Of a stretch of DNA of 64,000 nucleotides, positions 7,989 to 63,363 are shown one piece after another. The DNA is from Verrucomicrobiales bacterium. GTDB lineage: Bacteria > Verrucomicrobiota > Verrucomicrobiia > Methylacidiphilales > JAAUTS01. Position 1 is the first letter of the stretch. Each line of letters starts with the position of its first letter. The stretch covers positions 6,448 to 70,447 of the forward strand of contig JAISDC010000267.1 in the NCBI GenBank assembly GCA_031265105.1, given 5' to 3'. A program made the translations under genes and the position numbers. Below the pieces are notes generated by a model, which saw nothing but the letters and a program-made list of their open reading frames with translations, was not told where the DNA came from and did not search any database.

Positions 7989-8630
7989 TTACCCAAGCAT
8001 CCACTCCGGCATATTTTTCAAATCCTCCGGCGTGTGAAAATTAAACACCGGCGTCCGTCCCAACTCCTCCAAAATCGCCGGATTCGTCACCGCCGCCGCC
8101 AAGTCGTCAACATCAACAGAATAATGATTCACAATCACTCCCGCCAATTCACACCCCGACGCGCGCACGCTTTCAATCGTCAACAGCGTGTGGTTCAACA
8201 TCCCCAGCGTCGCCGGCGCGACAATCGCCACCGGCAGCGCCAACTCCCGCGCCCAATCGCGCACAAAATAATTCACCGTCAGCGGCACCAGCCAACCGCC
8301 GACGCCCTCGACCAAAAACGGTCCGGGAAATTTTGTCATCACCGCCTCAACGCCGTCACGCAACGCGCAAAAATCAAACGTTTTGCCCGCCACCAAACCC
8401 GCCGCATACGGCGACAACGGCGCGGCGAGGTGCACCGGATTAATTTGGTTCAACGTCAGCGTCCCGTCATTGGCAGCGGCGAATTGCTCCGCGTCCTCAC
8501 GCCCCCCGCAGGAAATCGGCTTCAACGCCAGCGCCAACTTCCCGCGTCGCCGCAACTCCCGCGTCCACGCCGCCGTGACAAAAGTCTTCCCCACGCCAGT
8601 CCCCGTCCCCGTGATAAAAATTCCGCGCAT
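7989..8630 (-). CDS. bioD: ATP-dependent dethiobiotin synthetase
   Basis: 213 aa with an N-terminal P-loop (MRGIFITGTGTGVGKTFV) and BioD-like length and layout. Confidence 0.9.
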   Translation of the reverse strand: MRGIFITGTGTGVGKTFVTAAWTRELRRRGKLALALKPISCGGREDAEQFAAANDGTLTLNQINPVHLAAPLSPYAAGLVAGKTFDFCALRDGVEAVMTKFPGPFLVEGVGGWLVPLTVNYFVRDWARELALPVAIVAPATLGMLNHTLLTIESVRASGCELAGVIVNHYSVDVDDLAAAVTNPAILEELGRTPVFNFHTPEDLKNMPEWMLG

Positions 8631-8717
8631 ATAAATTCCAAATCACCATTTCCAACTACCAACTGCGGCTGTCGGCGCAGGTCGCCGGCTTCCTGCCGGA
8701 AGCAATTACGTCCATCA

Positions 8718-9233
8718 TCAGAAGTCCTCCAGTCTCATGGCAAAATCTATTTCGTGCCGGAGCGGTATCCCGTTCTGCCCGATATACGGTATGTCAGGCT
8801 TAAACGATTCCCGCTCCCGGTCTATCGCGCCCAAGTTCAAGCCGACCATGTCAAATCCGCGCTTTTGATAAAAGCCTATCGCGTTGATGTTGTCGTTCGA
8901 GGTCAACAGGCGCAGGATTGTACAACCGTTGGCAATGGCCGTCTGCTTTATATTATCAAGCAAAGCAGTACCAAGCCCGGTGCGTGGGCGTTCACTGTTG
9001 AGCGAAACAATTTCACAGGCATCACCGCGGATAATATAGGTCGCGAGTCCGATTACGTTTTCGCCGGATTCGTCCAACGCGATGAAGCCGGCGATTACGG
9101 CGCAGTCGATGATTTCGCTGCGAATCATTATTTGGGCGGTCTGCCACTTACGGGTGAGGTAAGTTGTCACAAGCTCGCGGGTCTCGGAGGTAATCGGCCT
9201 TATGCCGTGCGCGTTCGTCATATTGTAATTCAA
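8718..9233 (-). CDS. GNAT family N-acetyltransferase
   Basis: 171 aa with an acetyl-CoA-binding region (RPRTGLGTALLDNIKQTAIANG ... FYQKRGF). Visibly lower GC than the flanks. It lies between two copies of the bioD 5' end. Confidence 0.8.
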   Translation of the reverse strand: MNYNMTNAHGIRPITSETRELVTTYLTRKWQTAQIMIRSEIIDCAVIAGFIALDESGENVIGLATYIIRGDACEIVSLNSERPRTGLGTALLDNIKQTAIANGCTILRLLTSNDNINAIGFYQKRGFDMVGLNLGAIDRERESFKPDIPYIGQNGIPLRHEIDFAMRLEDF

Positions 9234-9449
9234 GCCTTTTCGATTCCCTATTTCAATCCTTGTAAATCCTGTTTCTCCGTGATTCCGGTTTTATCAGGTC
9301 GTGGCGGTACCCGTTCAAAGTCTTTGTCAAATCGTCCGGCGCATAAATCTCAAAATTTAAAATACCCGTCGCTGATGGCGCAGGTCAGCAACAGCGGCAA
9401 ATGGCGGCGCCTTGACAATTCACCGCGAATATATAATTCACACTAACAT

Positions 9450-9572
9450 GAAATCGGCTTCAACGCCCGCGCCGCGTTTCCGCGCCGCCGCAATTCCCGC
9501 ACCCACGCCGCCGTGACAAAGTTTTTCCAACGCCCGTGCCCGTGCCTGTGATGAAATTCCGCGCATATAAAT
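9450..9572 (-). pseudogene. Degenerate duplicate of the bioD 5' end (about codons 1-39 plus ~6 nt upstream)
   Basis: 9450..9572 aligns with 8512..8636 at ~80 % identity (by eye), including CCGCGCATATAAAT around the start codon. It is a direct repeat 938 bp from the functional copy. Confidence 0.8.
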
Positions 9573-9622
9573 CCCCAAAAGCCGTCAGCAACAACACTAT
9601 TCATGTGGCAAATCACACTGAC

Positions 9623-10421: not shown

Positions 10422-10449
10422 CGATAAATAAAATTCAAATTTCAAAAAA

Positions 10450-11324: not shown

Positions 11325-11330
11325 TCGCTC

Positions 11331-12043: not shown

Positions 12044-13411
12044 TTAATTCACAACCTCTTCGATCCCCTTGCACAACGCGCTGACCATGACGTCAACTTC
12101 AGCGGGCGTCGTCGTGTACGGCGGCATCAACAGCAACACATCACGCCCAGCCGGGCGCGTGAGCAGGCCGTGTTTTTTCGCCGCCTCGCACACGCGCGCG
12201 CCGACGCGCAGCGACGGGTCAAACGGCTCGCGCGTGGAAAAATCCTTCACCAATTCGATTGCCAGAATACAGCCCTCCTGCCGCACGTCGCCGACCGCTG
12301 GCAGTGACCAAAATTTTTCATGCGCCGCTGTCAACGCCGCTGCCAATCGCCGCTGACGGTCGGCGCAATTGTCGCTTTGCAAAATATCCAACGTCGCCAG
12401 CGCCGCCGCGCAACCGAGTTGGTTGCCGGTGTAACTGTGACCGTGGAAAAATGTCCGCGTCGCGTCGCCGCGAAAACCGTCAAAAATTTTCTCTGTCAGC
12501 AACGTCACCGCCAGCGGCAGATAACCACCGGTGAGCGCCTTCGCCAGCGCAACCAAATCCGGCGCGACCTGTTCTTTTTGCCACGCGAATATCGCGCCCG
12601 TGCGTCCGAAGCCGGTCATCACTTCGTCGAGAATCACCAGCGCGCCGTGCCGTTGCGCGATGGCGCAGGTTTCCGCCAGATAATTGTCCGGATGCATGAT
12701 GAAGCCCGCCGCCCCTTGCACGCGCGGCTCGACGACCCACGCCGCCGCGCGCGCACCGTCAGCGGCGAATTTTTTCTCCACCGCTGCGATACACTCGCGC
12801 CCGCACCGCGCGTAAGCGCGCGCGTCAGCGCGTTGCGGCGCGGCTTGGTTGAACGGGCAGCGGTAGCAATACGGCACCGGCACCTCGTCCGACTCGAACA
12901 GCATGTTTCTATAACAATGATGAAACAACTTGCTATGCCCGACGCTCATCGCGCCGACCGTGTCCCCGTGATACCCCGCTGACAGTGACACGAATTTTTT
13001 CCGTTGCGGCTCGCCGTTCTGCGCGAAAAACTGATACGTGATTTTCAACGCCGCCTCAATCGCCGTCGCCCCGTCGTCGGAAAAAAAGCAGCGCGTGAGC
13101 CGGTCATCGTCAGCGAGTTCGACCAGCCGTTTCCCCAACACCGGCGCGAGTTCATTGGTCAGCCCAAGGAACGACGAATGAGCAATCCGGTCAAGCTGCG
13201 CCCTAATCGCCCCGCTGACCGTGGCGTTGCGATGCCCGTGAATATTCGTCCAAATGGAAGAATTGCCGTCGAGATATTTATTCCCCTGGTCGTCGCACAA
13301 CCACGACCCGTCCCCGCTGACAATGACCGTCGGCGCATAATCCGCTGCCAGCCAGGCATCCGTCAGCGTGAACGGATGCCACAAATATTTTTTATCCAGC
13401 GCGGCGGGCAT
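12044..13411 (-). CDS. bioA: Adenosylmethionine-8-amino-7-oxononanoate aminotransferase
   Basis: Class-III PLP aminotransferase (YLWHPFT, GNSSIWTNIHGH, SAGYHGDT, ILDEVMTGFGRTG). The start was moved from 13465 to MPAALDKKYLW (13411) because the first 18 ORF codons are REP-A sequence. Confidence 0.9.
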   Translation of the reverse strand: MPAALDKKYLWHPFTLTDAWLAADYAPTVIVSGDGSWLCDDQGNKYLDGNSSIWTNIHGHRNATVSGAIRAQLDRIAHSSFLGLTNELAPVLGKRLVELADDDRLTRCFFSDDGATAIEAALKITYQFFAQNGEPQRKKFVSLSAGYHGDTVGAMSVGHSKLFHHCYRNMLFESDEVPVPYCYRCPFNQAAPQRADARAYARCGRECIAAVEKKFAADGARAAAWVVEPRVQGAAGFIMHPDNYLAETCAIAQRHGALVILDEVMTGFGRTGAIFAWQKEQVAPDLVALAKALTGGYLPLAVTLLTEKIFDGFRGDATRTFFHGHSYTGNQLGCAAALATLDILQSDNCADRQRRLAAALTAAHEKFWSLPAVGDVRQEGCILAIELVKDFSTREPFDPSLRVGARVCEAAKKHGLLTRPAGRDVLLLMPPYTTTPAEVDVMVSALCKGIEEVVN

Positions 13412-13414
13412 CGG

Positions 13415-13452
13415 AAAATTTAACCACAGATTTACACAGATGGACACCGATA
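13415..13452. repeat. REP-A half element (TTAACCACAGATTTACACAGATGGACACCGAT)
   Basis: Member of the GTGTYCATCCGTGTCCATCCGTGGTTAAAA family seen at eight sites in the window. Confidence 0.75.
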
Positions 13453-13526
13453 GTTTGATTTTCAATATTTACAGATAGGAGCCATATAGTGTGTTATCGT
13501 CAGCGTCAGGGCTAGGGCGGCAGGCG

Positions 13527-23404: not shown

Positions 23405-23432
23405 AAATGTCAGAAAAATAAACCGGGCCAAG

Positions 23433-23857: not shown

Positions 23858-23978
23858 GTTTTGATAATGGAAAACCTTGCGCCGTTGCCAAGCAAAACCT
23901 AGCATTACCCGCTAACCGTGAACCGAGACCACGAAGGCACACGCATGTTGCGCCGTCAGCGTCAGCGCCGGATGTATT

Positions 23979-24010
23979 AGTGTTCATTCGTGTCCATTCG
24001 CGGTTAAAAA
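23979..24010. repeat. REP-A half element
   Basis: AGTGTTCATTCGTGTCCATTCGCGGTTAAAAA, immediately upstream of the ABC-F start. Confidence 0.75.
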
Positions 24011-24011
24011 T

Positions 24012-25856
24012 ATGCTCAGTCTCTCCAACATCAGCAAGGCCTTCGCCGGGCGCGTCCTGTTCGCGGACGTGGCGCTGCAAGTCAACCGCGGCGACCGCGT
24101 GGCGTTGGTGGGCGCGAACGGGGCGGGGAAGACGACGCTGTTCGCCATTATCCGGCGCGAGCTGGCGCCGGACACGGGCGGCGTCACGCTGGAGCGCGGG
24201 ACGACGCTGGGGTATTTGCCGCAGGAGACCGCCGCAGTCGGGGACGAGACGGTGCTCGGCCTCGCCACCGGCGGCGCGGGCGCCGATGGTGACCTGTCGC
24301 GGGCGCCGCGCGCCAAGCGCATCCTCAGCGGGCTGGCCTTCCGCGAGCGCGATTTCGACCGCCCCGCGCGCGCGATGAGCGGCGGCTGGGTGATGCGCGC
24401 GCACTTGGCGCGGCTGTTGGTGGCGGCGCCGGATTTGTTGTTGCTCGACGAGCCGACCAATCATCTCGATTTGGAGTCGCTGGTGTGGTTGCAGAATTAT
24501 TTGAAAAATTATGCCGGCGCGCTGTTGATGATTTCCCACGACCGCGCGTTTTTGAACGCATTGACCGACAGTGTGCTGGAAATCCGCCATCAGCGGCTGC
24601 AGCGTTATCGCGGCAATTACGACGACTATCTCCGGCAGCGCGCCGACCGCGAGGCGCAGCAGCGCGCCGCCTATGACAACCAGCAGCGCGAAATCGCCAC
24701 CCTGCAACGCTTCGCCGACCGCTTCCGCGCCAAGGCCAGCAAGGCCTCGCAGGCCCAGAGCAAGTTGAAGCAAATCGCGCGCCTGGAAAAAATCGCCGCG
24801 CCCGACGCCGCCGACCGGCGCATCCACATCAAGTTCCCGCAACCGCCGCGCGGCGGACAGCGCAGCGTCACCCTCAGCGGCGCGCACTTCGCCTACGGCC
24901 CGCTGACGGTGTATCGCGGCATCGACTTCGCGGCGGAGCGCGGGCAGCGCGTCGTGCTGGTCGGGCCGAACGGCGCGGGCAAATCCACGCTGCTGAAGTT
25001 GCTCGCCGGCGTGCTGGCGCCGTCGGCGGGCGAACGGTTGTTAGGGCACAACATTGTCAGCGGCTATTACGCGCAAAACCGCGTGGAGATGCTCGACGTG
25101 CGGCGCACGGTGCTGGCGGAGGCGCTGGACTTGCCAACGCCGGTGCCGGAGCAGACCGTCCGCACCGTGCTCGGCTCCTTCCTGTTCAGCGGCGACGACG
25201 TGTTCAAGCACGTCGGCATCCTCAGCGGCGGCGAGAAATCGCGGCTGGCGCTGGTCAAATTATTGCTCAATCCGCCGAACTTGCTGTTGATGGACGAGCC
25301 GACCACGCACCTCGACATGGCGAGCATCGACGCGCTGCTCGACGCGCTGGCGCAATACCAGGGCACGCTCATCTTCATCAGCCACGACGTGTATTTCATC
25401 CGCGCGCTGGCGAAGAGCGTGCTGAGAATCAGCGCCGGGCAACTCACCCCCTATGCCGGCGACTACGATTATTATTTGTCAAAAACCCAAACCGCCGACG
25501 CCCGCGCCGGCCTGGTCGCGGGTGAAAAACTGTCCGACCACCGCCCCGGGGAAGCCGCTGACGATGCGGTCAAGGCACAGCCGTCCATCTTCAAAACGCG
25601 CGAGGAAAAGAAACAAGCGGCGCAAGACCGCGAGCAGCGCGCCAAGATAAAACGCGCCGCCGCCGCAGACGTCGCGCGCCTGGAGGCGGAAATATTATCC
25701 CTGGAATCGCGGCAAAAGGAATTGTTGGCGGAATTACAAAACCCGAACACCTTCGACTACCAACGCCATCAGGAATACGAGGCGCTGACCGTGACCTTGG
25801 AAACTACCAACCAACGCTGGCACGAAGCCGTGGAAAAACTGGCGGCGCTGCAGTGA
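24012..25856 (+). CDS. ABC-F family ATPase (two ABC cassettes, no TM domain)
   Basis: 614 aa with Walker A motifs GANGAGKTT and GPNGAGKST and two LSGG signatures. It also has an inter-domain linker and a C-terminal coiled-coil tail. Confidence 0.9.
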   Translation: MLSLSNISKAFAGRVLFADVALQVNRGDRVALVGANGAGKTTLFAIIRRELAPDTGGVTLERGTTLGYLPQETAAVGDETVLGLATGGAGADGDLSRAPRAKRILSGLAFRERDFDRPARAMSGGWVMRAHLARLLVAAPDLLLLDEPTNHLDLESLVWLQNYLKNYAGALLMISHDRAFLNALTDSVLEIRHQRLQRYRGNYDDYLRQRADREAQQRAAYDNQQREIATLQRFADRFRAKASKASQAQSKLKQIARLEKIAAPDAADRRIHIKFPQPPRGGQRSVTLSGAHFAYGPLTVYRGIDFAAERGQRVVLVGPNGAGKSTLLKLLAGVLAPSAGERLLGHNIVSGYYAQNRVEMLDVRRTVLAEALDLPTPVPEQTVRTVLGSFLFSGDDVFKHVGILSGGEKSRLALVKLLLNPPNLLLMDEPTTHLDMASIDALLDALAQYQGTLIFISHDVYFIRALAKSVLRISAGQLTPYAGDYDYYLSKTQTADARAGLVAGEKLSDHRPGEAADDAVKAQPSIFKTREEKKQAAQDREQRAKIKRAAAADVARLEAEILSLESRQKELLAELQNPNTFDYQRHQEYEALTVTLETTNQRWHEAVEKLAALQ

Positions 25857-26651: not shown

Positions 26652-26750
26652 TTTTTTAACCACCGATGAACACGGATGCACACGGATAGTTCGCGGTACC
26701 GCGTAAATTAACATCATCCGTGTCCATCGGTGTTCATCGGTGGTTAAAAT
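26652..26750. repeat. REP-A full inverted pair
   Basis: TTTTTTAACCACCGATGAACACGGATGCACACGGAT ... CATCCGTGTCCATCGGTGTTCATCGGTGGTTAAAAT. Confidence 0.85.
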
Positions 26751-26792
26751 AAAGTTATCATAACCTTGTCAGGCTATGACACAGTGGCGGCG

Positions 26793-28472: not shown

Positions 28473-28478
28473 AACTAG

Positions 28479-28563
28479 TTTTCAACCACGGATGGACACG
28501 AATGGACACGGATGATGGACGGACGGATCAAGGGATGCTTGAAATAGCTGTATTTATCCGTGT

Positions 28564-28581
<18 letters not shown>
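28479..28581. repeat. REP-A inverted pair
   Basis: TTTTCAACCACGGATGGACACGAATGGACACGGATG ... ATCCGTGTTCATTCGTGGTTAAAAAA. The right arm supplies the last codons (..FFNHE) of the ATPase gene. Confidence 0.85.
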
Positions 28582-29550
<969 letters not shown>

Positions 29551-29554: not shown

Positions 29555-30916
29555 CTAATGGGTTCCATAGGACTTATGGTACCTATGGATTTCCTGCTCC
29601 AGGTTTTGATAACGCTGCACGGCCTGCTTCATCCAAGACTCCGCCAGGGCGCGCGCCGCGGCGGGATCTTGCCGCCAGCGGGCCGCTGACGCTGACGCCG
29701 CCGCCTCGCTGATGAACGGCGCGGTGAATTTTTCGATGAACGGCCCGCGCTCGGCGGCGGGGACGCTGAGGATGGCCTGCCAGCAGCGGCGCAGTTGCGG
29801 GTGCACGTCGATGACGGTCTGGCCGATCAGGTCGTTGACAAGGTTCCAGCGCCCGCTGCCGAGTTCCGGCCGGTACGGGATGGAATAATTTTGCGCGAAC
29901 GGGTTGAGCAGGCGCGCGCCGCCGGCACCGTCAGCGGCGTAGAGCGCCGGCAGCACGCCCATGCGGGCGATGTCGAACTTGACCGGCCCGCCGGCGGCGC
30001 CGCGCGGTCGCATCCACAGCGACTGGCCGCGCGGCGACAGCACGAAGTCCACGAACATTTCCGCCACACGCAGGTTAGGCGCGCCCTTGAGAATGGCGAT
30101 GCCGTCCGGGTTGATGACCGACAAATCGCGCGGGATGACCAGGCTGAGGTTGTCCCGGCCCAGGAAATTCCGCTGGGTCAGGCCGTAGCTGTCGATGGTC
30201 GGCGCGCAGACGGCGTTGCCCAGGGCAACCTCCTTGGCCGGGCCGCTGGCGTTGTCGAGGAAGGCGGCGACGTTGCCGCTCATGCGGTAAAGCACGCTCC
30301 AGCCGCGCTCCCAGCCGTAGGCTTGCAGGATGATTTCGTAAATCATGTGGAACGCACCGCTTTTGCGCGGGTCGGCGGAGCTGACCCAGCCGCGCAATTC
30401 CGGGCGGCACAAATCCTCCCACGTTTCGGCGCGCGGCTGCATCGTCAGCGCCAGCACGCGGTTGTTTTGCAGGATGCCGAAGGACGCCAGCGCCGCGCCG
30501 TAGAACATGTGGTCGCGGTCAATAATCGGCACCCCGCCGACATTGGCGGGCAGTTGCGACCGGAGGTCGGCGGGCAATTGGTGCGCCAGCAAATGACCGC
30601 GCGCCTTCTGGCTGAGATAGGGGTCCAGCCCGCCGCCGAACAGGATGTCCACCTGCGCCGAGTCGGGGGTGGCCGCGAAGCTGGCGTTGAGCGCTTTTTC
30701 AATCTGCGAGGTGCCGCCGAGGTCGCGCCAGCGGACGCTGACGGTGCGGCCGGTCTGGTCGTGGTAAAATTGTTCAAACGCGCGGCCGAACTCGTAGCGC
30801 ACACCCTCCCAGTGCGGGGAAACGATGATGAGTTCATCGTCAGCGGCGCGGCTCGCCATGGCCGCTGACAGTGACAGCGCGGCCAGCAGGATGACGGTCA
30901 GCGGGCGGGCGGGCAT
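29555..30916 (-). CDS. ABC transporter substrate-binding protein (Fe3+/solute-binding family)
   Basis: 453 aa with a signal peptide (MPARPLTVILLAALSLSAAMASRA). The fold pattern is that of an extracellular solute-binding protein. First gene of the operon. Confidence 0.8.
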   Translation of the reverse strand: MPARPLTVILLAALSLSAAMASRAADDELIIVSPHWEGVRYEFGRAFEQFYHDQTGRTVSVRWRDLGGTSQIEKALNASFAATPDSAQVDILFGGGLDPYLSQKARGHLLAHQLPADLRSQLPANVGGVPIIDRDHMFYGAALASFGILQNNRVLALTMQPRAETWEDLCRPELRGWVSSADPRKSGAFHMIYEIILQAYGWERGWSVLYRMSGNVAAFLDNASGPAKEVALGNAVCAPTIDSYGLTQRNFLGRDNLSLVIPRDLSVINPDGIAILKGAPNLRVAEMFVDFVLSPRGQSLWMRPRGAAGGPVKFDIARMGVLPALYAADGAGGARLLNPFAQNYSIPYRPELGSGRWNLVNDLIGQTVIDVHPQLRRCWQAILSVPAAERGPFIEKFTAPFISEAAASASAARWRQDPAAARALAESWMKQAVQRYQNLEQEIHRYHKSYGTH

Positions 30917-39068: not shown

Positions 39069-41174
39069 TTAGAACTGGTGACGGTAGCCCGCGGTCAGGC
39101 CCCAGGGTTTGTCGTACTTGTTGCCGAAGGAGGCTTCGTAGTCCAAGTGCAACTGATTGTTGGTGTCGAGTTGCCAGATGAGGCCGGCGCCGAGTTCGGC
39201 TCTGGCACCGTCAGTGTTAGCGCGGGTGGATTGATAGCCGTTTCTGATGGCGCCACCGCTGCTGATGGTTTCGACGCCGCTGATCTTGATATAGGGTTGT
39301 AACGCGCCGCTGTTGGTGAGTTTAATGGTTCTGCCAAACAAGCTACCGATGCGGAGTTGCAGGGCGTCGAGGTCTTGGGCGCTGATGGTCAAGGGAGCGG
39401 CGCTGTAATTCTCGGCGAGGATGTGGAGGTAGTTTACTTGGAGTTGTGGCTCGATGAACCAGTCATCGGTGAAGGTGAATTTGTTGCCAATCTCAATGCT
39501 GCCACCGATATTCACGTCGCTGTAGTTGGCTTTGAGTTGGGTGGTGCCGTAAGGGGCTTTCAGGTTGTTGTTGACACTGGCAGCCTTGAAAGTGGCATCT
39601 ATATAGAAGCCGCTGGAGTGGAGCCAAGTGGCGTAGAGGCCGCCGTAGTAGCTGTTGAGTTCACCGTCAGTGCCGGGGGTGCGGTAGTCGAGGTCGCTGC
39701 GACCATAGCCGGCATACACTCCAAGATACAAGTCACTGTCAGCGCTGATGGTGAACTTGTGATCCGTGCCGAGATCGACGCCGTAGATGAGTTGTTCGTA
39801 GGCTTTGCCTGCTACTTGGCTGCCGACGTTTAATTGTTGGCCGTAGCTTCTGAGCCAGAGGTTGTCGATGAGGTTATGGAACGCGGGCGTCTCGCCCGCC
39901 AGCGGGCGGGACGCCCGCGCTCCATAGCGCAGTTCACCCATGCGTTTGAGCAAACTGTTTTGCTGCGCGAACCACATGGCTTGTTGGATGGCCACGCTGC
40001 TGTTGAGGACGGCGCCGGCGGGGCTGGTACCGTTTTTCACGAAGTAGTCGCCGTCTTTGATGACGGTGTCGATGCCCCAGTCGATGGGATCCCACTGCCA
40101 GTGCTCCGTGCCCTCGCCGCTGACGATGCCGGGCAGTACGTCGTTGGGATTGAGTTGGCCGTTGCCGGTGGTGTCGCTGTGGACTTTGCCTTCACCGTCA
40201 GCGGTATCGGTTATGTGGATGGAGCCACCCTCGCCGGTGTCGCTGTTGACGTTGATGTTGATGGTGCCGGTGTGGGTCAGGTTGTCGAAGATGACTTCGT
40301 AGTCGCCGATGTTCCACACGCCGTGGTTCTCGCCGTAGTTGCCGTGGCTGTTTTTGTTGAAGGTCCACGCGCTGTCCTCGCCGGTGATGAGGTTGCCGCC
40401 GGCGAAGCCGCCGCTGCCGATGGCGCCGGTGTCAAGGATGACGGTGATGGTGCTGTCGTCGTGTTGCGCGATGTCGCCGGTGAAGCTGCTGCCGGGGCCG
40501 CTGACGGTGACATCGATGGTGGCGGTGCCGCTGGCGGTGAGGTCACCGATGATGCCGCTATTTTTGCCATTGATGGTTAGGGAACCATCGTTGGTGTTAG
40601 CGCTGTTACCGGTCAGATTGGTGTCGTCCAAATTAATGGTAATATTTCCGTGACCGTTATTAACCACATCGCCGATGATGCCGCTGCCGTTGTTGACATT
40701 GACGGTCATGTCGCCTTGCGCGCCACTGCCAGCGGTGAGACCGCCAGCTTGCGTGGCGTCCGCGTGGTCCAGTGTCAGCGTGACGGTGCCGCCGGTGGTG
40801 ACTTCATCATTAATCAGGCCGTTGGTTATTAATCTGGCGCCATCACTGACGGTCACGTGCATCGTGTTGGCGCTGCCGTTGCCGTTGGTTGAGGTGTTAA
40901 TCAGCGGCGTATTGGGCGCGTCAATCGTGCCGCCGATGATTTCCACAGTTTTGACGCCATTGCGACCGACCACGGTGAAAATACCGGCCGCCGTGTCGGT
41001 TTCTATCGTGGGATTTTCCAAATGCAGCAACGCATTGCCACCGTCAGCGAAACGTACCGCATAGTCGGTGCCGCGATAGATGATACGTGTGTTGCTGCCC
41101 GTCACGGTTCCGCCCGCACCGGTATAACCAATCACCCGTAACCTCGATGAATCAATCGTGGCGCCGGTACCCAA
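39069..41174 (-). CDS. Autotransporter paralog 2, C-terminal 701 aa (passenger repeats + beta-barrel); lacks its own signal peptide
   Basis: The last ~470 aa are ~90 % identical (by eye) to paralog 1. The ORF begins at a TTG inside a 7-nt tandem duplication and continues the upstream ORF 41152..41946 if one repeat unit is removed. Confidence 0.8.
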   Translation of the reverse strand: MGTGATIDSSRLRVIGYTGAGGTVTGSNTRIIYRGTDYAVRFADGGNALLHLENPTIETDTAAGIFTVVGRNGVKTVEIIGGTIDAPNTPLINTSTNGNGSANTMHVTVSDGARLITNGLINDEVTTGGTVTLTLDHADATQAGGLTAGSGAQGDMTVNVNNGSGIIGDVVNNGHGNITINLDDTNLTGNSANTNDGSLTINGKNSGIIGDLTASGTATIDVTVSGPGSSFTGDIAQHDDSTITVILDTGAIGSGGFAGGNLITGEDSAWTFNKNSHGNYGENHGVWNIGDYEVIFDNLTHTGTININVNSDTGEGGSIHITDTADGEGKVHSDTTGNGQLNPNDVLPGIVSGEGTEHWQWDPIDWGIDTVIKDGDYFVKNGTSPAGAVLNSSVAIQQAMWFAQQNSLLKRMGELRYGARASRPLAGETPAFHNLIDNLWLRSYGQQLNVGSQVAGKAYEQLIYGVDLGTDHKFTISADSDLYLGVYAGYGRSDLDYRTPGTDGELNSYYGGLYATWLHSSGFYIDATFKAASVNNNLKAPYGTTQLKANYSDVNIGGSIEIGNKFTFTDDWFIEPQLQVNYLHILAENYSAAPLTISAQDLDALQLRIGSLFGRTIKLTNSGALQPYIKISGVETISSGGAIRNGYQSTRANTDGARAELGAGLIWQLDTNNQLHLDYEASFGNKYDKPWGLTAGYRHQF
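39876..39925. repeat. REP-C palindrome in frame in autotransporter 2
   Basis: ATGGAACGCGGGCGTCTCGCCCGCCAGCGGGCGGGACGCCCGCGCTCCAT. Confidence 0.8.
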
Positions 41175-44989: not shown

Positions 44990-46525
44990 TCAAAATGGAA
45001 ACTCATCGGCGGCGGCTTTGACTTTTTCCTGTTTGAGGACCTGGGCGGTCTCGTGGGTGCGCAGGCCGCTGATGGTGATGGCTTTTTTCGGCAACGCGGG
45101 GCAGGCGTATTGGCAGGCGCCGCAGCCGATGCAGTATTGCTCGTCAACCACCGGCAGCGGGTCGCGGAATTTGTCCGTCTTTCTGATTTGCAGCGCCGCC
45201 GTCGGGCAGTGCTCGGCGCAGGCACCGCAGGCGGTGCCGTCGCGGTAGATGATGCACTCTTGGTGGTCGAAGACGGCGAGGCCGATGCGGGCGGTTTGTT
45301 TTTGCGCCACGGTCAGCGGCAACAAGGCGCCGTCGGGGCAGACTTCGCCGCAGGTGACGCAGTTGATGTTGCAGAAGCTGTGGTTGAAATTCAGTCGCGG
45401 TTTCATGAAGCCGCTGACGCTGGCGTATTCGAGGAAGGACGGCTCCAACACGTGGCTGGGGCAGGCGCTGACGCACAACTGGCAGGCGGTGCAGCGGACG
45501 AGGAAGCGGTCGCGGTTTTGCGCGCCGGGCGGCATGACGGCGTGGCCGAATTTACCGCCGTCGGCGTTGCGCGTGCCAACGGCCACGGTGCCGCTGACGG
45601 TGGCGACGAGGAAGTGGCGACGGTCAAGGTTCACGTCACCGTCAGCGGGAGTTTGGCGCGCGCGAAAATATTTCAGCGGATTTTGGAAACGGTACTTGAT
45701 GCCGTGTTCGTCACAGACGGCAACGCAGTTGTAACACGCGACGCAGCGTGAGAAATCAATCTCCCCCGCCCGCAAATTGATGCACTGCGCTTTGCACGCG
45801 CGGAGGCAGTCGCCGCATTTTTTACAAGCGGCTTGGTCAATGGTGAGTTTCCACAACGAAAATTTCGCGACGAGGCCGAGCAGCGCGCCGACCGGGCAAA
45901 TGGTGTTGCAATACAAGCGTCCGCGCCACACGGCCAGCGCCACGACCGCGGCGGTCACCATCAGCGTCGCCGCCAGTACGGCGGGCGGCACCCAGTGGAC
46001 GGTCACGCGCGGCACGGCGTCGGTGCCGAGCGCCCGCAGCGCCTCGCTCGCGAGATTGTTGCCGCTGACGATGAGCGGGCGCAGCACATTGCCGGCGAGG
46101 CGGCCGAAATTGCTATACGGGTCGAGCCACGCCAGCACCGCGCCGCCCGCGCCCGCCGCGACGCTGACGCTGACGCTGACGGCGGCGAGGATGCTATAGC
46201 GCAATTTATTGGCCGGCTTTTTATAACCGAGGAATTTTTTCTTACGCCGGAACAAATTCGCCGCGCGCATGACAATGTCCTGCAAAATCCCCAGCGGGCA
46301 AACGACCGAGCAATACACGCGCCCGACCAGCGCGCTGACGATGAGGATGGCCAGCGCTGCACCGCTGACGGCGAGGGCGGCGGGGACGAATTGCATCATC
46401 GTCAGCGCGTGCTTGAACGCCGCCGACAGCCAGTCGCGGTAGTCGAGAAACGCGAGGCTGACGCCGACCATGACCAGCGCGGCAAGGATGATTCTGACGC
46501 GGCGGAGAATATTACGGTGTTTCAT
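44990..46525 (-). CDS. Membrane-bound polyferredoxin (4Fe-4S binding protein, NapH/YccM-like)
   Basis: 511 aa with N-terminal TM helices carrying CxxCP (YCSVVCPLG; YCNTICPVG). Several CxxCxxCxxxCP clusters lie in the C-terminal half. Confidence 0.75.
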   Translation of the reverse strand: MKHRNILRRVRIILAALVMVGVSLAFLDYRDWLSAAFKHALTMMQFVPAALAVSGAALAILIVSALVGRVYCSVVCPLGILQDIVMRAANLFRRKKKFLGYKKPANKLRYSILAAVSVSVSVAAGAGGAVLAWLDPYSNFGRLAGNVLRPLIVSGNNLASEALRALGTDAVPRVTVHWVPPAVLAATLMVTAAVVALAVWRGRLYCNTICPVGALLGLVAKFSLWKLTIDQAACKKCGDCLRACKAQCINLRAGEIDFSRCVACYNCVAVCDEHGIKYRFQNPLKYFRARQTPADGDVNLDRRHFLVATVSGTVAVGTRNADGGKFGHAVMPPGAQNRDRFLVRCTACQLCVSACPSHVLEPSFLEYASVSGFMKPRLNFNHSFCNINCVTCGEVCPDGALLPLTVAQKQTARIGLAVFDHQECIIYRDGTACGACAEHCPTAALQIRKTDKFRDPLPVVDEQYCIGCGACQYACPALPKKAITISGLRTHETAQVLKQEKVKAAADEFPF

Positions 46526-48453: not shown

Positions 48454-48545
48454 TTTTTTCAACCACGGATGGACGCTAATGAACACGGATGACCGTCAGC
48501 GTTGGCAAATTATCTGTGTTCATTAGCGTCCATCCGTGGTTGAAA
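48454..48545. repeat. REP-A inverted pair with the abundant motif (GACCGTCAGCG) in its loop
   Basis: TTTTTTCAACCACGGATGGACGCTAATGAACACGGAT ... ATCTGTGTTCATTAGCGTCCATCCGTGGTTGAAA. Confidence 0.85.
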
Positions 48546-48950
48546 GTTTTCTGCAATTCGCCAAGGCATACGGAAACAGTCTTCGTTGAACAACGCATAG
48601 TCGGCGCTGCCGTTGATGGCGAATGTCTTGATTGCACGCGCGGCGCTGAGCAGGTGCCTGGCAAAGGCGATGGTGGTGCCGGTCTTGACGCGGTCGTCGG
48701 CGAGCAGGACGCGCTTGCCGGCACAGTCGAAGCCAAGCGGGCGCAGCAGCACCGGCTGCGGGCCGCGCGGCGCATGGTCAGCGTCGCGGAAATTGATGTG
48801 CAATAAATCGAAGGGCAGCCGCAGGCGTTCGTTCAGCAAGGCGCCGGGGATGATGCCGCCGCTGGCGATGGCGACTAACAAATCGAAGGATTCCGGGATG
48901 TCAATTTCCCGGAGCCGGCGGTGAATGTCCTCGAACGATTTGGCGGCCAT
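48510..48950 (-). CDS. Phosphoribosyltransferase family protein
   Basis: PRPP-binding motif VLLADDRVKTGTT. A start at MAAKSFEDIH (48950) is preferred. The last 13 codons (ENFQPRMDANEHR) are REP-A sequence. Confidence 0.7.
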   Translation of the reverse strand: MAAKSFEDIHRRLREIDIPESFDLLVAIASGGIIPGALLNERLRLPFDLLHINFRDADHAPRGPQPVLLRPLGFDCAGKRVLLADDRVKTGTTIAFARHLLSAARAIKTFAINGSADYALFNEDCFRMPWRIAENFQPRMDANEHR

Positions 48951-49640: not shown

Positions 49641-49720
49641 TTTTTTTAACCACGGATGGACACCGATGAACACGGATTTGATTTTTATCTGTGTGAATCT
49701 GTGTCCATCCGTGGTTAAAA
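49641..49720. repeat. REP-A inverted pair in the divergent spacer before mnmG
   Basis: TTTTTTTAACCACGGATGGACACCGATGAACACGGAT ... ATCTGTGTGAATCTGTGTCCATCCGTGGTTAAAA. Confidence 0.85.
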
Positions 49721-49749
49721 CTTTATAAGTAATTTATACTAAACAAGTT

Positions 49750-58201: not shown

Positions 58202-59335
58202 ATGGCGGCCATGTCTTCCCTCGAACACGAGTTGCGCGCGCGGCTGGCCGCTGATGCCGAAGCGCGGCTGGAACGCGCGCTGACGGTGACGCCGGAGTCA
58301 CTGGTGTCGTTCGCGGACAACGACTATCTCGGTTTGGCGCGGCATCCGCTGCTAGTGGACGCCGCCGTCAGCGCCCTGCGCGAAGGTCGCGTCGGCGGCG
58401 GGGCGGCGCGGCTCATCAGCGGGAATTTTTCCCACCATCAGCGGCTGGAGGAGCGGCTCGCGGTATTCAAGAACAGTGCGGCGGCGCTGGTGTTCCCGAC
58501 GGGTTACGCGGTGCCGTGCGGCGTCATTCCGGCGCTGATGATGAAGCCGGATTTTGTCGTGCTCGACAAACTCTGCCACGCCGCGCTGTTCGACGGCGCG
58601 AAATTATCCGGCGCGCGCCGCGTGATTTTTCAACACAACGACGCCAATCACCTCGCGGAAATTCTGACGGAAATTCGCTCGCGCAGCGCGGCGGCGAAAA
58701 TCCTTGTCGTGGTCGAGTCGGTGTACTCAATGGACGGCGACCTCGCGCCGCTGACGGTGATTTGCGATTTGAAGGATAAATTCGGCGCGTGGCTGATGGT
58801 GGACGAGGCGCACGCGACCGGCGTGTTCGGCGCTGACGGTCAGGGCTTGTGCGCGCAACGCGGCGTCGCGTCGCGCGTGGAAATCCAAATGGGCACGCTC
58901 GGCAAGGCGCTCGGTGTCAGCGGCGGCTACGTCGCGTGCGCGCTGACGGTGAGACAATATCTCCTGCAACACGCCCGTTCCTTCATTTTCACCACCGCGC
59001 CGCCGCCGTGCCTCGCCGCCGCGTTGACCGTGGCGCTGGACATCGTCAGCGGCGCCGAGGGAAAATGCCTGCGGCAAAAGTTGTGGGATAATATCGCCTT
59101 GCTCAACACGCTGACATTGAACCGTACCAACCCCGCTAGCCCTATCATCCCGCTGATACTCGGCGCGGCGGACGCGGCGCTGTCAGCGTCAGCGCGCCTG
59201 CGCGCCGCCGGTTTGTTTGTCCCCGCCGTGCGTTACCCCACCGTCCCCCGTCACGCCGCCCGCCTGCGCGTCACCCTCAGCGCAAGACATACGCGGGAGC
59301 AGATAGAGTTGCTGGCAAAAAACCTGCTGATATAG
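58202..59335 (+). CDS. bioF: 8-amino-7-oxononanoate synthase
   Basis: 377 aa alpha-oxoamine synthase with FADNDYLGL, VESVYSMDGD, DEAHATGVFG and the PLP lysine in GTLGKALG. Confidence 0.9.
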   Translation: MAAMSSLEHELRARLAADAEARLERALTVTPESLVSFADNDYLGLARHPLLVDAAVSALREGRVGGGAARLISGNFSHHQRLEERLAVFKNSAAALVFPTGYAVPCGVIPALMMKPDFVVLDKLCHAALFDGAKLSGARRVIFQHNDANHLAEILTEIRSRSAAAKILVVVESVYSMDGDLAPLTVICDLKDKFGAWLMVDEAHATGVFGADGQGLCAQRGVASRVEIQMGTLGKALGVSGGYVACALTVRQYLLQHARSFIFTTAPPPCLAAALTVALDIVSGAEGKCLRQKLWDNIALLNTLTLNRTNPASPIIPLILGAADAALSASARLRAAGLFVPAVRYPTVPRHAARLRVTLSARHTREQIELLAKNLLI

Positions 59336-59920: not shown

Positions 59921-60134
59921 AAAAATCAAAAGAACTTGCGTAAGTTAGGCGGATAAGATACCATCTCATCCTGTTATCGGCGCAAGCTGGCACTGGCCAC
60001 CAAAAAAACATGGGTGGTTAAGCAAAGGCAAAAAACTGGTAACTCGCTGAAGATGACCGAGATAGCCCATAGAATCGAATCATCGCGCTCACGCGCTCAC
60101 GCGCTCACGCGCTCACGCGCTCACGCGCTCACGC
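59921..60134 (+). repeat. Element E copy 2: ~163-bp conserved module plus (CGCGCTCA)x6.4
   Basis: Inverted homolog of 4937..5180. It lies 371 nt upstream of the low-GC operon starting at 60506. Confidence 0.75.
60084..60134. repeat. 8-bp tandem repeat (CGCGCTCA), 6 full units plus CGC
   Basis: Counted directly. The unit is the same as at 4937..5024 but the copy number differs. Confidence 0.95.
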
Positions 60135-60505
60135 CTGAGCCGGATAGTTTTTGCCAAAAATATTCCTGATACGGTTCAACCGCGTCACTGGACTCCCAAG
60201 TCAGCCTGTTTTGCCCCGATGTCACATGGCATTGGGTTAATACCGCCTGTCGTAAAATCAGCGCCCGACCCAATGGAACATCAGCGTCAGCCTGTTCCAG
60301 GAGCTGTGAACACAAACGAGAACACCAGCATAGTACCGGCAATTCCACTGATAATGGGACAGGAGCTAATAAAGTAACCAAGCCTTGCCCAAGTAACTTT
60401 AGATTTTTTTGAGCATGAAAATTTCAAAGAATGTCACTATCAGCGATGAGTTGTCGCCCTTGGTGATGATTCCTTGGAAAAACAAATAATATAGAAAGGT
60501 AAATT

Positions 60506-61024
60506 ATGAAAGAATCACTAAATAAAATATATGAATCAGAACTCAAGGTTTTTATTATAACACTTATCCAGAGTTCACAACTATTTAGGTCACTTGGAGC
60601 AAAGAGAAAAAAATTATCTGAATTGGCTAAAAAAGAACTGAAAAGAAAATTACTAGATTTCAGTATTGAATTAATAAAAGAAGCTGATAGTGGAACATTG
60701 AAAAATAGTAAAATTCACAAAAAAATAGAAGAGCTGACTAAAATTAACAAATTGATTTCCTTTGGTCGAGCGCAAAAGGCATTGAATATTGTTTTGAAAT
60801 CTTATTGCATCATTACCCGGAAAAAACAGGGAATTTTGCGAGAATTGGATTGCCCTCTTGATAGCAGAACAATGAAACACTGTGGGATTCCTGAAAATAG
60901 ATTACTTGATGTCGAAAAAAATGATTATTTGTGCTATCAGAAAAAATTTGAAGAAGAGGAATTGAGAATATTTGAAGACTATAAAGCTTATAATGAGAAC
61001 AGAATCAATAAATTTATAAAATGA
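60506..61024 (+). CDS. Hypothetical Lys/Glu-rich protein (low GC)
   Basis: 172 aa preceded by AAAGG 8 nt upstream. It contains an FGRAQKALNIVLKSY ... LDCPLDS block that I cannot assign to a named family. Confidence 0.5.
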   Translation: MKESLNKIYESELKVFIITLIQSSQLFRSLGAKRKKLSELAKKELKRKLLDFSIELIKEADSGTLKNSKIHKKIEELTKINKLISFGRAQKALNIVLKSYCIITRKKQGILRELDCPLDSRTMKHCGIPENRLLDVEKNDYLCYQKKFEEEELRIFEDYKAYNENRINKFIK

Positions 61025-61752
61025 TAAAAAATCAAAATTTGTTGCTAACAATGATAGTCATTGTCAGCTGTAAGTCAATATTTATGAAGGCAATATTACT
61101 AATAACCTTACTGGCGGTAACAACTTCATTTGCGGTCGTTCAAACCAAAAACAATGAAATTAAAAAACCTGTCTTGGACAAGAACAAGATATCTACATGG
61201 AGACAAGTGACGCTTGCGGATGGAACGGTTGAGAAGTGGGACACGATTTACTCCATCAAACCATACGGTATCGGTGTTGGTGGGACAAATGGTGTCAAAA
61301 CCATCTATTTCAAGAGCTTACCAGAAAAGCTCCAAAAGGAAATAGGATACAATTCAGCTATTGTGGCCCCTACAATCCCTGACGTCGATATTAAGCCAAT
61401 CAAGTCTTACGATAATGATATTACGCGGCTTGCTGATATTGAAAAGAAGTTAGAGGCGTTGCGGGAAACAAATACCTTGATAGGAATCCGACTTCTGGAA
61501 CTTGGTTCAGGCCGCACCTCTATTGGGGACTCGTATGGCACAACGAGTAATGGGGAGTCGTACGTCATAACGAGTCGTCGTCGCCGTGGTTCTTCCCAGC
61601 CCTTGATGGAGCGTATTGAGGCTCTTGAGAAAGACAAAGAGACGCATGAACTTTTGAATGCTAAAAGGGCGAATGATGAGACTGCAAGGCTATTGTGGTT
61701 TGAGAAAAACAATATCCTAAAACGGAAAGCCAAGCTCGCAGATAACCCCTAA
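61021..61752 (+). CDS. Hypothetical secreted/coiled-coil protein (low GC)
   Basis: 243 aa with an ATGA overlap with the previous gene. The signal-like segment is MKAILLITLLAVTTSFA (alternative start 61084). The C-terminal half is coiled-coil-like. Confidence 0.5.
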   Translation: MIKNQNLLLTMIVIVSCKSIFMKAILLITLLAVTTSFAVVQTKNNEIKKPVLDKNKISTWRQVTLADGTVEKWDTIYSIKPYGIGVGGTNGVKTIYFKSLPEKLQKEIGYNSAIVAPTIPDVDIKPIKSYDNDITRLADIEKKLEALRETNTLIGIRLLELGSGRTSIGDSYGTTSNGESYVITSRRRRGSSQPLMERIEALEKDKETHELLNAKRANDETARLLWFEKNNILKRKAKLADNP

Positions 61753-61873
61753 ACAATGCCAGTATCGGTATCGCTCTTGTTGAGATTTTCTATAAGAGCT
61801 TTGGTAAGAGTAACTTTTACACACGTCAAAGTTTCCAACGAAACCCCACTGCTGGTTGGTCAGTTTATCAAAC

Positions 61874-61972
61874 CATCAGTGTCCATCTGTGTTAATCCGT
61901 GGTTAAAATTTTCAATGCCTTCTGCGCTGGATAAAACACATTCACGCCGACGGATGTCTGGCTGTCAGCGGT
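61874..61972 (+). pseudogene. bioA 5' fragment 1: REP-A half element plus the first ~57 nt of bioA with an ~11-nt deletion
   Basis: It aligns with the reverse complement of 13340..13452. Homology stops at GGCTGTCAGCGG, which also contains the MNT gene stop codon. Confidence 0.75.
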
Positions 61973-62267
61973 GGAAAAAATCCATGCTTTTTTCGTCAAT
62001 GTGTTGGCGCAGATTTTGATTGGTGATTTGGTTGTAAACGACCAAGTCCACTGCCATTGGCAGCGCGTGTTCTTCCAGCGCCACGCGCAGTTTCGCCAGG
62101 TCGCTGATGGTGAGCTGCTCGCCGAACAGGGCGAGGTCAATGTCCGAGGCGGGTTGAAACACGCCCAGAGCGCGCGAGCCGAACAGCACGGCGCGGGTGA
62201 CTCGCGGGTGCGCCGACAACACGCTGACGATGGCGGCGCGCTGGCGTTCTGACAGGCCGTCATTCAT
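61965..62267 (-). CDS. Nucleotidyltransferase-domain protein (MNT-type antitoxin)
   Basis: 100 aa with the motifs LFGSRALG and ASDIDLALFG. It overlaps the HEPN gene by 4 nt. Confidence 0.8.
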   Translation of the reverse strand: MNDGLSERQRAAIVSVLSAHPRVTRAVLFGSRALGVFQPASDIDLALFGEQLTISDLAKLRVALEEHALPMAVDLVVYNQITNQNLRQHIDEKSMDFFHR

Positions 62268-62665
62268 GCCGCCGTCAATGCGTTAAGCCGGTCAACGCAT
62301 CCGTCAAGCAGCGGCGCGTACTTATTCTTAATCAAATTTAGCGCTTGCCGACTGATGGCGTCATCGTAAGTGTGCGTAAATAAATTACGGCTCTCCAGCG
62401 CTTCCAGCCATGTCTCGCCGTCAGTGACCATGCCCGCCTGAAACGCTTGCCGAATGGTCTCGCGTGGGCTGTTGACCTGATAACCGTCGAAGAGCAATTT
62501 GTCGCGTAGCGTCTTCCAACATAGCTCAAACGTGAATTCGTAAGTTTGCACCAGCCCGGCGATTTCCAACTCGCTGTAATTGGTTTGCGCGCAAGCCGCC
62601 ACCAGACGCGCGCGGGCTTTGTTCAAGTTTTCGAGGCGCTGCCGCCAGCGGTCGGGATTTTGCAT
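62264..62665 (-). CDS. HEPN-domain protein, HI0074 family (nucleotidyltransferase substrate-binding protein; toxin of HEPN-MNT pair)
   Basis: The Rx4H motif is ESRNLFTHTYD. The ATG at 62665 is preferred because GGAGA lies 8 nt upstream. The ORF track starts at the GTG at 62680. Confidence 0.8.
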   Translation of the reverse strand: MQNPDRWRQRLENLNKARARLVAACAQTNYSELEIAGLVQTYEFTFELCWKTLRDKLLFDGYQVNSPRETIRQAFQAGMVTDGETWLEALESRNLFTHTYDDAISRQALNLIKNKYAPLLDGCVDRLNALTAA

Positions 62666-62750
62666 GGCATAATTCTCCACATTTCACCGTCAGCGTCAAC
62701 GGCGTGTTTTTCAGATGTTCATGATAGTTGGTTGCGGCTAGATTTTTTGC

Positions 62751-62973
62751 ATGTTTGCCGCGCTGGACAAAAAATATTTGTGGCATCCGTTCACGCCGAC
62801 AGATGCTTGGCTGGCGGCGGATTATGCGCCGACGGTCATTGTCAGCGGGGACGGGTCGTGGTTGTGCGACGACAAGGGGAATAAATATCTCGACGGGAAT
62901 TCTTCCATTTGGACGAATATTCACGGGCATCGCAATGCCACTGTCAGCGGGGTATCACGGGGACACGGTCAGC
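62751..62973 (+). pseudogene. bioA 5' fragment 2: nt 1-~188 of bioA (~94 % identity) joined to 18 nt from bioA codons ~146-151
   Basis: MFAALDKKYLWHPFTPTDAWLAADYAPTVIVSGDGSWLCDDKGNKYLDGNSSIWTNIHGHRNATVSG, followed in another frame by SAGYHGDTV. It is inverted relative to the intact bioA at 12044..13411. Confidence 0.85.
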
Positions 62974-63198
62974 TTTAACGCGCTGATGGAATTGCGGGAA
63001 GATTTGTACAGCTACGCCGGTGTGCTGGAAAGTTTCGAGCGCGCCGGGCGACTGTTCCCGATGGCGGCTCACTAATCCGCCCGCGCGGGTGACCGGCTGC
63101 CGTCACTCGACGAAAGCTGTTCGTCACCCCGTTTTTATCAACTTAAACCCAATATAAAACCTCAACCAAAAGGAACCCCGATGTCCATGCGGCTTATT

Positions 63199-63225
63199 AA
63201 ATTCCCCTTCATGGAAGGGGAATTT
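63199..63225. repeat. REP-B core hairpin (AAATTCCCCTTCATGGAAGGGGAATTT)
   Basis: Perfect palindrome matching the inner part of REP-B units. Confidence 0.7.
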
Positions 63226-63363
63226 GCTCACGCCGGAGAATTAGTCATGAGTGAAGAATTAAAATCTACCGCTAATCGCGGGCTTGGTCTTTACTCCGCC
63301 TCGCAGCGTCTCCGCGCGAACATAAAAACGCTTCGCGCCTTCGCGTCTTCGTGGCCGGAGTTT

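Follow-up and report, generated by a model that had tools for sequence, protein, structure and literature searches.

The 64,000-nt stretch of Verrucomicrobiales DNA analysed here, referred to below as the window (contig JAISDC010000267.1 of assembly GCA_031265105.1, positions 6,448 to 70,447), carries towards its right-hand end a bioF-like gene, a low-GC island, a short bioA remnant (f1), the genes of an MNT antitoxin-type nucleotidyltransferase and a HEPN protein, and a decayed bioA 5' end (f2, in the two parts f2a and f2b), and the intact bioA gene lies about 49 kb away (Table 1). The ends of the bioA fragments fall repeatedly on GTCAGCG, which together with its complement CGCTGAC makes up the two commonest 7-mers of the window, and the initial annotation described a bioA' mosaic with all four of its breakpoints on this motif. 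Three of the four are indeed found on it (the first, second and third) and the fourth is not, and the anatomy itself has to be corrected in the light of related contigs. The locus is best explained, with a probability of about 0.68, as a native biotin operon, bioF-bioA-bioD, that received an old HEPN-MNT insertion and decayed later, the motif providing the longest short repeats for otherwise ordinary repeat-mediated events.

Relatives were found through a BioA protein search, and the contigs encoding proteins 94, 85, 84, 77 and 75% identical to BioA of the window, like all comparators metagenome contigs, were then compared (L116 to L122). The strains of L116, L119/L120 and L117 belong to JGI samples 3300042643, 3300038675 and 3300042609. 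The HEPN and MNT genes are adjacent and overlap by 4 nt, the HEPN start is supported by the L001 gene call, which begins at the same place, and on their domain matches, which give sound family assignments, the two make up a predicted HEPN-MNT toxin-antitoxin (TA) module. GTCAGCG overlaps the MNT stop codon (61965-61967). That the homologues in L116 (97% identity) and L120 (78%) are likewise exactly 100 aa long suggests that this ...R-stop end of the protein is native. A scan of genome contigs with HEPN gave matches among which the best listed are 63-65% identical (Akkermansia and Verrucomicrobiae metagenome-assembled genomes), none of them motif-rich, and the MNT C-termini at these loci vary and are compatible with a native stop at ...HR* without proving it. 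In a scan of metagenome contigs with the BioA N-terminus the best of the matches listed was 65% identical and again none was motif-rich, and an exact look-up of BioA of the window returned no record.

Table 1. Features of the bioF-bioA locus, the displaced bioA gene and the control cassette in the window.
Feature	Positions	Strand	Basis or remark
bioF-like gene (8-amino-7-oxononanoate synthase family)	58202..59335	+	Pfam Aminotran_1_2, E = 1.6e-46
Low-GC island (~40% GC), two open reading frames (ORFs) without assigned family	59972..61752	+	Between bioF and f1; composition
f1: REP-like leader and what is left of bioA codons 1 to ~50	61867..61971	+	Alignment
Motif copy at the f1::MNT junction	61964..61970	+	Site of the ancient junction J2, overlain by the 28-nt deletion E2
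MNT antitoxin-type nucleotidyltransferase (predicted), 100 aa	61965..62267	-	Pfam Polbeta (PF18765) and NTP_transf_2 (PF01909)
HEPN protein (predicted), NTase_sub_bind type, 133 aa, ATG at 62665	62264..62665	-	PF08780, E = 7.9e-33
Motif site 0, right-hand boundary J3 of the ancient insertion	62689..62695	+	Motif-anchored alignments to L117/L118
Native leader of bioA (62696-62750; its orthologue is the L117 spacer) and f2a	62696..62952	+	Contiguity with intact bioA in L116
f2a: first 202 nt of bioA, ATG at 62751	62751..62952	+	
Junction of the 236-nt deletion E4	62936..62952	+	One hybrid CAC[G/T]GTCAGCGGGG copy; motif 62943-62949
f2b: last 21 nt of bioA homology, ending at GGTC/AGCTTT (E5)	62953..62973	+	
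Tail from the end of truncated bioA to the convergent gene for a phosphorylase (PNP_UDP_1)	62974..63363	+	
Intact resident bioA	12044..13465	-	Pfam Aminotran_3
Motif sites of resident bioA (reverse complement)	site 1 13353-13342; site 2 13327-13312; site 3 13223-13210; site 4 12987-12974		Site 1 reads GGCAGCG here
GNAT acetyltransferase cassette region, control event	8514..9578	-	Cassette 8643-9451; ORF 8721-9290 (-)
REP-like repeat copies	5176-5211, 13416-13459, 23974-24013, 26652-26753, 28478-28583, 48455-48549, 49642-49724, 61873-61912		

In L116 the order is low-GC island, f1-like bioA 5' fragment, MNT, HEPN, intact bioA and S26 peptidase, followed further on by bioD; its positions 2854-3841 match window 61965-62952 over 988 gapless nt at 95.6% identity, and its positions 3646-7608 match window 13405-9452 (3646-8574 align to 13405-7549). 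L120 (about 83% nucleotide identity) has bioF, then a REP-like leader, then an f1-like fragment joined to MNT, and L119, from the same sample, reads HEPN, a spacer with a motif copy termed site 0, and intact bioA; the f1-like fragments fused to the 3' end of MNT occupy 2747-2860 in L116 and 401-498 in L120. L117 and L118 (BioA 85%; source label Verrucomicrobiales) are on the other hand empty sites, in which bioF and bioA lie 72 nt apart without a cassette, and the order bioF-bioA-bioD is found in L117, L121 and L122. Since the cassette is shared with L116 (about 95%) and with L119/L120 (about 83%) and is absent from L117/L118, the insertion is an old one. The bioF-like gene, which matches L120 615-1442 at 80.8%, is by the same comparison the gene natively located upstream of bioA in the operon, and the supposed mosaic sits at the native bioF-bioA locus, f2 being the original 5' end of bioA, preceded by its own leader. 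The notion of a mosaic with four breakpoints is accordingly abandoned, as the first and second breakpoints are the two ends of one ancient insertion and f2 was not captured. A single cassette insertion into one bioA' copy is also ruled out, since f1 and f2 overlap in bioA coordinates.

The ends of the fragments were defined by formal pairwise alignment, a check proposed with the initial annotation: f1 aligns to bioA 13459-13342 (76%, with a 13-nt gap), f2a (62733/62757-62952, the 62733 start resulting from looser scoring) to 13428/13405-13210 at 92-95%, and f2b, which from 62936 to 62973 aligns to 12990-12953 at 95%, overlaps f2a by 17 nt. The coordinates given earlier stand except that the first string was off by one, GGCTGTCAGCGG lying at 61960-61971. 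The end of f1 at MNT was rightly recognised as a breakpoint on GTCAGCG, and it is a composite of an old f1::MNT junction (J2) and a later deletion (E2). At the site aligned with this end the resident bioA reads GGCAGCG. The original position of J2 is retained in L116 and L120, where it lies 28 nt deeper in bioA, at the gene's own GTCAGCGG (13321-13314), and reads ...GTCATTGTCAGCGG followed by the MNT stop; the junction strings (slash at the junction) are GTCAGCGG/TGGAAAAAATC in the window, ATCAGCGG/TGG in L116 and GTCAGCGG/CGG in L120, and this site 2 reads GTCAGCGG in the intact bioA of the window, L116, L117 and L119. Compared with the f1-like copy in L116, f1 of the window has a 13-nt deletion (61938/61939) and a 28-nt deletion (junction GGCTG/TCAGCGG). 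The latter is E2 and removed the 28 nt found between sites 1 and 2; in the intact L116 allele site 1 reads GGCTGTCAGCGG, and TGTCAGCGG is present at both sites. The microhomology at J2 would amount to up to 7-8 nt, provided that CCGCTGAC was natively present 3' of the MNT stop.

The second breakpoint, near the HEPN start, is likewise upheld, namely as the true boundary (J3) of the ancient insertion at a motif copy already present in the empty site. The L117/L118 empty-site spacer reads CGCC[GTCAGCG]CCTGTTTTTC, and its homology to the window extends rightwards from the motif, with only 2 nt matching leftwards; similarity to the resident bioA begins at about 62714-62733 and not at the motif. Contiguity in L116 had suggested that J3 is no breakpoint, a view overturned by alignment of these empty-site contigs. 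Relatives with and without the cassette show the insertion junctions, site 2 joined to the MNT stop on one side and site 0 on the other. Directly after site 0 the cassette-bearing genomes (window, L116 and L119) read TCAACGG (7 nt, 62696-62702), which is absent from L117 and may be an insertion scar.

The third breakpoint holds as described, a 236-nt deletion (E4) between direct repeats of which one copy is retained, as a single hybrid at 62939-62952. The parental repeats, the reverse complements of 13210-13223 and 12974-12987, read CACGGTCAGCGGGG and CACTGTCAGCGGGG, are identical over 10 nt and at 13 of 14 positions overall, and are present also in L116 and L117. Both endpoints of E4 and of E2 lie in parental direct repeats and a single copy is kept at the E4 junction, so that both deletions carry the textbook signature of deletion between short direct repeats. 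At the fourth breakpoint (E5) the claim of a motif fails: homology ends at GGTC/AGCTTT, where just the 6-mer GTCAGC is found, followed by T, and the site reads GTCGGC, GTTGGC or GTCGGG in bioA of the window and five relatives. The window contains 6 copies of GTCAGCT, a rare variant.

Copies of the motif lie so close together, above all in bioA (9 in 1.4 kb), that junctions could meet them by mere chance, with no part played by the motif. Positions at most 5 nt from a copy make up 5.4% of the window, 6.3% of the local sequence and 10.8% of bioA, one of the four earlier breakpoints fails, and at least four to seven nearby junctions are without motif. The calculation proposed for four of four breakpoints gives, with three of the four on the motif, P = 0.0006-0.005. 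When J2, J3, E2 and E4 are instead counted as 4 among the 8-14 events at the locus and in its surroundings, P is 0.0005-0.056, the upper value being reached with 14 events at the density within bioA and 0.0005-0.004 under less conservative counts; all P values are post hoc. The excess of the motif at junctions is in our view real yet modest. However, chance gives no account of the in-register motif at both parental endpoints of both larger deletions, with one copy kept as is the signature of repeat-mediated events, nor of the two cassette ends that lie on same-orientation copies in three genomes, and we therefore regard coincidence as an unlikely explanation, if still the strongest of the rivals.

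The repeat content of bioA points the same way. There are four pairs of direct repeats of at least 10 nt in the first 575 nt of the gene (10-11 nt), three of which contain the motif, and in the whole of bioA 7 of 11 repeats of at least 13 nt with at most one mismatch contain it. Since the motif is found in most long repeats of bioA, repeat-mediated deletion in this gene is expected to use it. Furthermore, since the motif occurs once per ~300 bp and its extended form of 10-14 nt supplies the longest direct repeats, it would be the preferred substrate for ordinary short-homology events, and no motif-specific enzyme would be needed. The earlier proposal of a recombination or microhomology hotspot consequently survives in part: a role as microhomology substrate is supported by the motif-to-motif deletions, but nothing demonstrates a dedicated hotspot over and above the prediction from repeat length.

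The history that we favour is as follows. In an ancestor the HEPN-MNT cassette entered between bioF and bioA, with duplication of the bioA leader and the first ~150 nt of the gene (~200 nt), the left junction joining bioA's own GTCAGCGG (site 2) to the MNT stop and the right junction being made at the pre-existing site 0. Microhomology at motif copies may have served for this, through joining or template switching, or a circle closed at the motif may have integrated. In the lineage of the window the intact bioA block came to lie 49 kb off in inverted orientation, and the bioA pieces remaining beside the cassette decayed, f1 by losing 13 nt without the motif and 28 nt between TGTCAGCGG-type repeats, and f2 by losing 236 nt between CAC[G/T]GTCAGCGGGG repeats and by truncation at a motif-free junction. 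The later losses between motif copies probably arose by slippage or RecA-independent deletion. Several observations nonetheless weigh against this history of an operon, an insertion and motif-mediated decay. The sample is small and the region was picked after the pattern had been noticed; E4 used the pair of sites 3 and 4 (10 nt exact) and not the slightly longer pair 2 and 4 (11 nt); the length of the J2 microhomology depends on which sequence stood downstream of MNT before the insertion; the 7-nt TCAACGG right after site 0 is unexplained in the cassette-bearing genomes; and the f1 and f2 leaders are only ~60% alike, so that the duplicated segment may have arrived with the cassette.

The motif itself deserves closer description. 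It is present in 102 copies on the forward and 105 on the reverse strand, 207 in total or 1 per 309 bp, where base composition predicts ~12 copies, an enrichment of ~17-fold. Information content reaches beyond the 7-mer, the extended consensus of ~12 nt being tCAccGTCAGCGgc, and the consensus of the window copies is asymmetric, with neither a palindrome nor inverted arms around the core. Five of the six reading phases are used, the sixth being one that would carry an in-frame TGA, and density is alike inside genes (1/300 bp) and outside (1/350 bp), phases and coding density both resting on crude gene calls; adjacent copies show no preference for orientation or for inverted pairs. Since the motif spans five phases, is equally dense outside genes and has no orientation preference, it is to be seen as a feature at the DNA level. 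A Chi-like hotspot would be expected to have a strong orientation bias along the replichore, to be judged against the direction of replication; within the window the copies on the two strands show no local orientation pattern. Searched in full against Rfam at gathering thresholds, the window gave no match, and a literature search on the motif strings and on Verrucomicrobia DNA uptake sequences returned only primer matches or irrelevant papers, so the motif appears to be undescribed so far. At 46162-46180, 23955-23967, 59182-59194, 15656-15668 and 29684-29696 motif copies overlap in tandem at period 6 (GTCAGCGTCAGCG and CGCTGACGCTGACGCTGAC).

L116 to L120 and the window are motif-rich (1 copy per 127-309 bp), and L121 (BioA 77% identical) and L122 (75%) are motif-poor, with 1/4401 and 1/1093 respectively. 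At the position orthologous to site 2 of bioA these two read GTTAGCG or GTTGGCG, from which it follows that the motif is gained through substitution, in one case together with a Gly-to-Ser change. The window and L116 share 21 copies and have 7 private ones (7/28 differ) in 6.6 kb at 95.5% identity, so turnover between them is at about the neutral rate. Judged from these contigs, the enrichment appears to be lineage-specific and evolutionarily young.

It may also be asked whether tCAccGTCAGCGgc is a recently evolved and actively used signal (in uptake, strand exchange or nicking), and hence a preferred crossover site for cassette capture and loss, or in more general terms whether a recombinase, nicking enzyme or uptake-linked integration targets the motif, spreads it and catalyses gain and deletion of cassettes. 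Such a process would fit the position of the cassette between two same-orientation copies, one of which pre-existed in the empty site, the ~17-fold, lineage-restricted and recent enrichment that is absent from relatives with BioA 75-77% identical, the gain of copies at orthologous sites by substitution even at the cost of a Gly-to-Ser change, and the precedent of HIP1, a motif that has been linked to site-specific recombination and higher transformation efficiency. If true, one motif would drive both its own spread and the plasticity of gene content in this Verrucomicrobiales lineage. However, the target duplication of ~200 nt is not what a simple one-site insertion produces, the motif is neither palindromic nor flanked by arms, the scan of the ORFs at 60.5-64 kb and 7.9-15.3 kb gave no integrase or recombinase family, a GNAT cassette with the same architecture lacks the motif, and turnover relative to L116 is about neutral. 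In view of the long target duplication, the asymmetric motif, the lack of a recombinase nearby in that scan, the motif-free GNAT twin and the neutral turnover, a dedicated site-specific system is unlikely, and an actively used signal is in our estimation a shade less probable even than coincidence. The motif was likewise rejected as an att-, attC- or dif-type site, there being no recombinase in the scanned ORFs, no inverted arms, and ~200 nt duplicated on both sides of the cassette.

That strains occurring together were assembled into one chimeric contig through the bioA sequence they share, a concern raised by the metagenome source, by related strains in sister samples and by the unusual arrangement of three bioA 5' copies with nested inverted repeats, is very improbable, since identities at the deletion and tail junctions are just 17 and 38 nt and in our judgement too short for contig mis-joins at the usual assembler k-mer sizes, since 61789-62846, with the f1::MNT junction and site 0, recurs without change in an independent Logan assembly of SRR14710921, and since the old junctions recur in L116, L119 and L120.

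The displacement of the intact gene is a separate matter. In the window the block from bioA with the S26 peptidase through bioD (7549-13465) is inverted and lies ~49 kb from the cassette, whereas it adjoins the cassette in L116 and L119/L120, and f2 and the 5' end of intact bioA form inverted repeats at both ends of the 49-kb segment. The leader is of the f1 type at the intact copy and of the spacer type at f2, and the sites that vary among f2, intact bioA of the window and bioA of L116 form a patchwork. Between f2a and the resident bioA there are 9 differences in a 196-nt alignment (CDS nt 7-202), and since 7 of the 9 are synonymous the two copies have diverged under selection, f2a not being a fresh duplicate. 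The simplest reading, and a likely one, is that inverted bioA 5' copies recombined and so inverted the segment, although it leaves the third bioA 5' copy unaccounted for. In L119 nine codons (27 nt) close to the 5' end are missing from the intact bioA (333-1676), and they are retained in the f1-like fragment of L120, presumably the same genome; this junction lies off the motif.

Junctions absent from the initial annotation, all of them without the motif, are those of the 13-nt f1 deletion, the left edge of f1 and the bioF side, the edges of the low-GC island and the GNAT cassette, and they show, with the ends of other repeats described below, that rearrangement also takes place off the motif. 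The ORFs of the island have no Pfam or NCBIfam match, and the island varies between strains, as only its left part (59972-60506) matches L116 (83%), the rest not being alignable, and L120 has no island at all; between 59766 and 61964 there is no motif copy. A direct duplication of 129 nt from the bioD 5' end borders the GNAT cassette on both sides. This cassette is absent from L116 despite the 95% identity of that relative, and has the motif at neither junction. It has the same layout at bioD as the TA cassette at bioA, with a 5' gene fragment, the cassette and the intact gene in this order, which hints at a recurrent mechanism of insertion with duplication in the lineage.

The remaining duplications in the window (2228-3718/39069-40559, 4974-5182/59918-60134, 8509-8642/9447-9578 and 15138-15277/15624-15762) all have their ends at least 21 nt from any motif copy. 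The first is a 1.5-kb paralogous stretch (86%) in two large genes, with a 52-nt near-perfect palindrome at 3034-3085 and 39875-39926. The second belongs to an outer inverted repeat pair (4937-5182/59918-60134; ~217 nt, 81%) that holds an 8-nt microsatellite, (TGAGCGCG)n, the copy of which at 60088 has five units fewer than in L116. The last is a direct duplication of 140 nt (91%) of the 3' end of an SAM-methyltransferase gene (14393-15286), with ~346 nt between the copies. Other repeats are a family of ~50 nt, GAACGCTGAACTACCCCG...CCCCTTCGCGGAAGGGG, found direct and inverted at 18126-18181, 19505-19631 and 23432-23587, with a related hairpin, AATTCCCCTTCATGGAAGGGGAATT, at 63203-63227, and the REP-like intergenic family AACCACGGATGGACACnGATG, which often occurs in inverted pairs, yields spurious ORFs of the "ICVHLWL" type and makes up the leader of bioA and f1. 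The peptide encoded in the tail (62974-63075) belongs to no family, its sole protein match being the contig's own 29-aa gene call.

The locus offers a natural and phylogenetically ordered case, with empty, occupied and decayed sites, of a hyper-abundant motif that shapes structural change, set in an uncultured Verrucomicrobiales-like lineage, with deletions in DNA no longer under selection and with parallels to the HIP1 experiments. The junction pattern yields a testable prediction for a genome-wide survey, and the motif itself is probably the more interesting object and merits a study of its own.

Among known systems, integron gene cassettes resemble the TA cassette in that it is small, apparently promoterless, inserted upstream of the resident gene and has a short repeated word at its ends, but here this word has 207 copies in 64 kb, and the reading was rejected, with no attC-like structure recognised, no integrase family among the neighbours scanned and a target duplication of ~200 nt. 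Target-duplicating insertion, by Campbell-type integration of a circle with a short homologous segment or by microhomology-mediated template switching, would produce the arrangement of 5' fragment, cassette and intact gene seen twice here (TA at bioA, GNAT at bioD); the TA junctions are both on the motif and the GNAT junctions both off it. The DNA uptake sequences of Neisseria (DUS) and Pasteurellaceae (USS) are likewise lineage-specific words of ~10-12 nt found on both strands and within genes in several frames, but the present motif shows no preference for inverted pairs and is 3-4 times denser than either. Deletions between short direct repeats, reportedly exemplified by the classical lacI deletion spectrum of Albertini and co-workers from 1982 and said to have been treated by Bzymek and Lovett in 2001, share with E2 and E4 endpoints in direct repeats of 9-14 nt, the keeping of one copy and the use of repeats that are among the longest available; what is different here is that the repeats are one genome-wide hyper-abundant word that recurs at independent events. 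HIP1 (GCGATCGC) of cyanobacteria is similarly over-represented, at least 15-fold, to about one copy per gene or denser, in coding and non-coding DNA, but an oligomer of the HIP1 kind is a palindrome targeted by orphan methyltransferases, and GTCAGCG is no palindrome, has a 7-nt core in a longer consensus of ~12 nt and belongs to a Verrucomicrobiales-like lineage of another phylum. HIP1 has recently been tied to transformation efficiency; it spreads by point substitution and is reported to promote excision or illegitimate recombination between its copies independently of the host (PMC5861425; PMC4390886), with excision in the accounts given there taking place at similar rates in E. coli and the native host (PMC5861425; PMC4390886 citing Robinson et al. 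1997). The closest mechanistic match to the events at this locus is thus the classical deletion between short direct repeats, and the closest match to the behaviour of the motif is HIP1.

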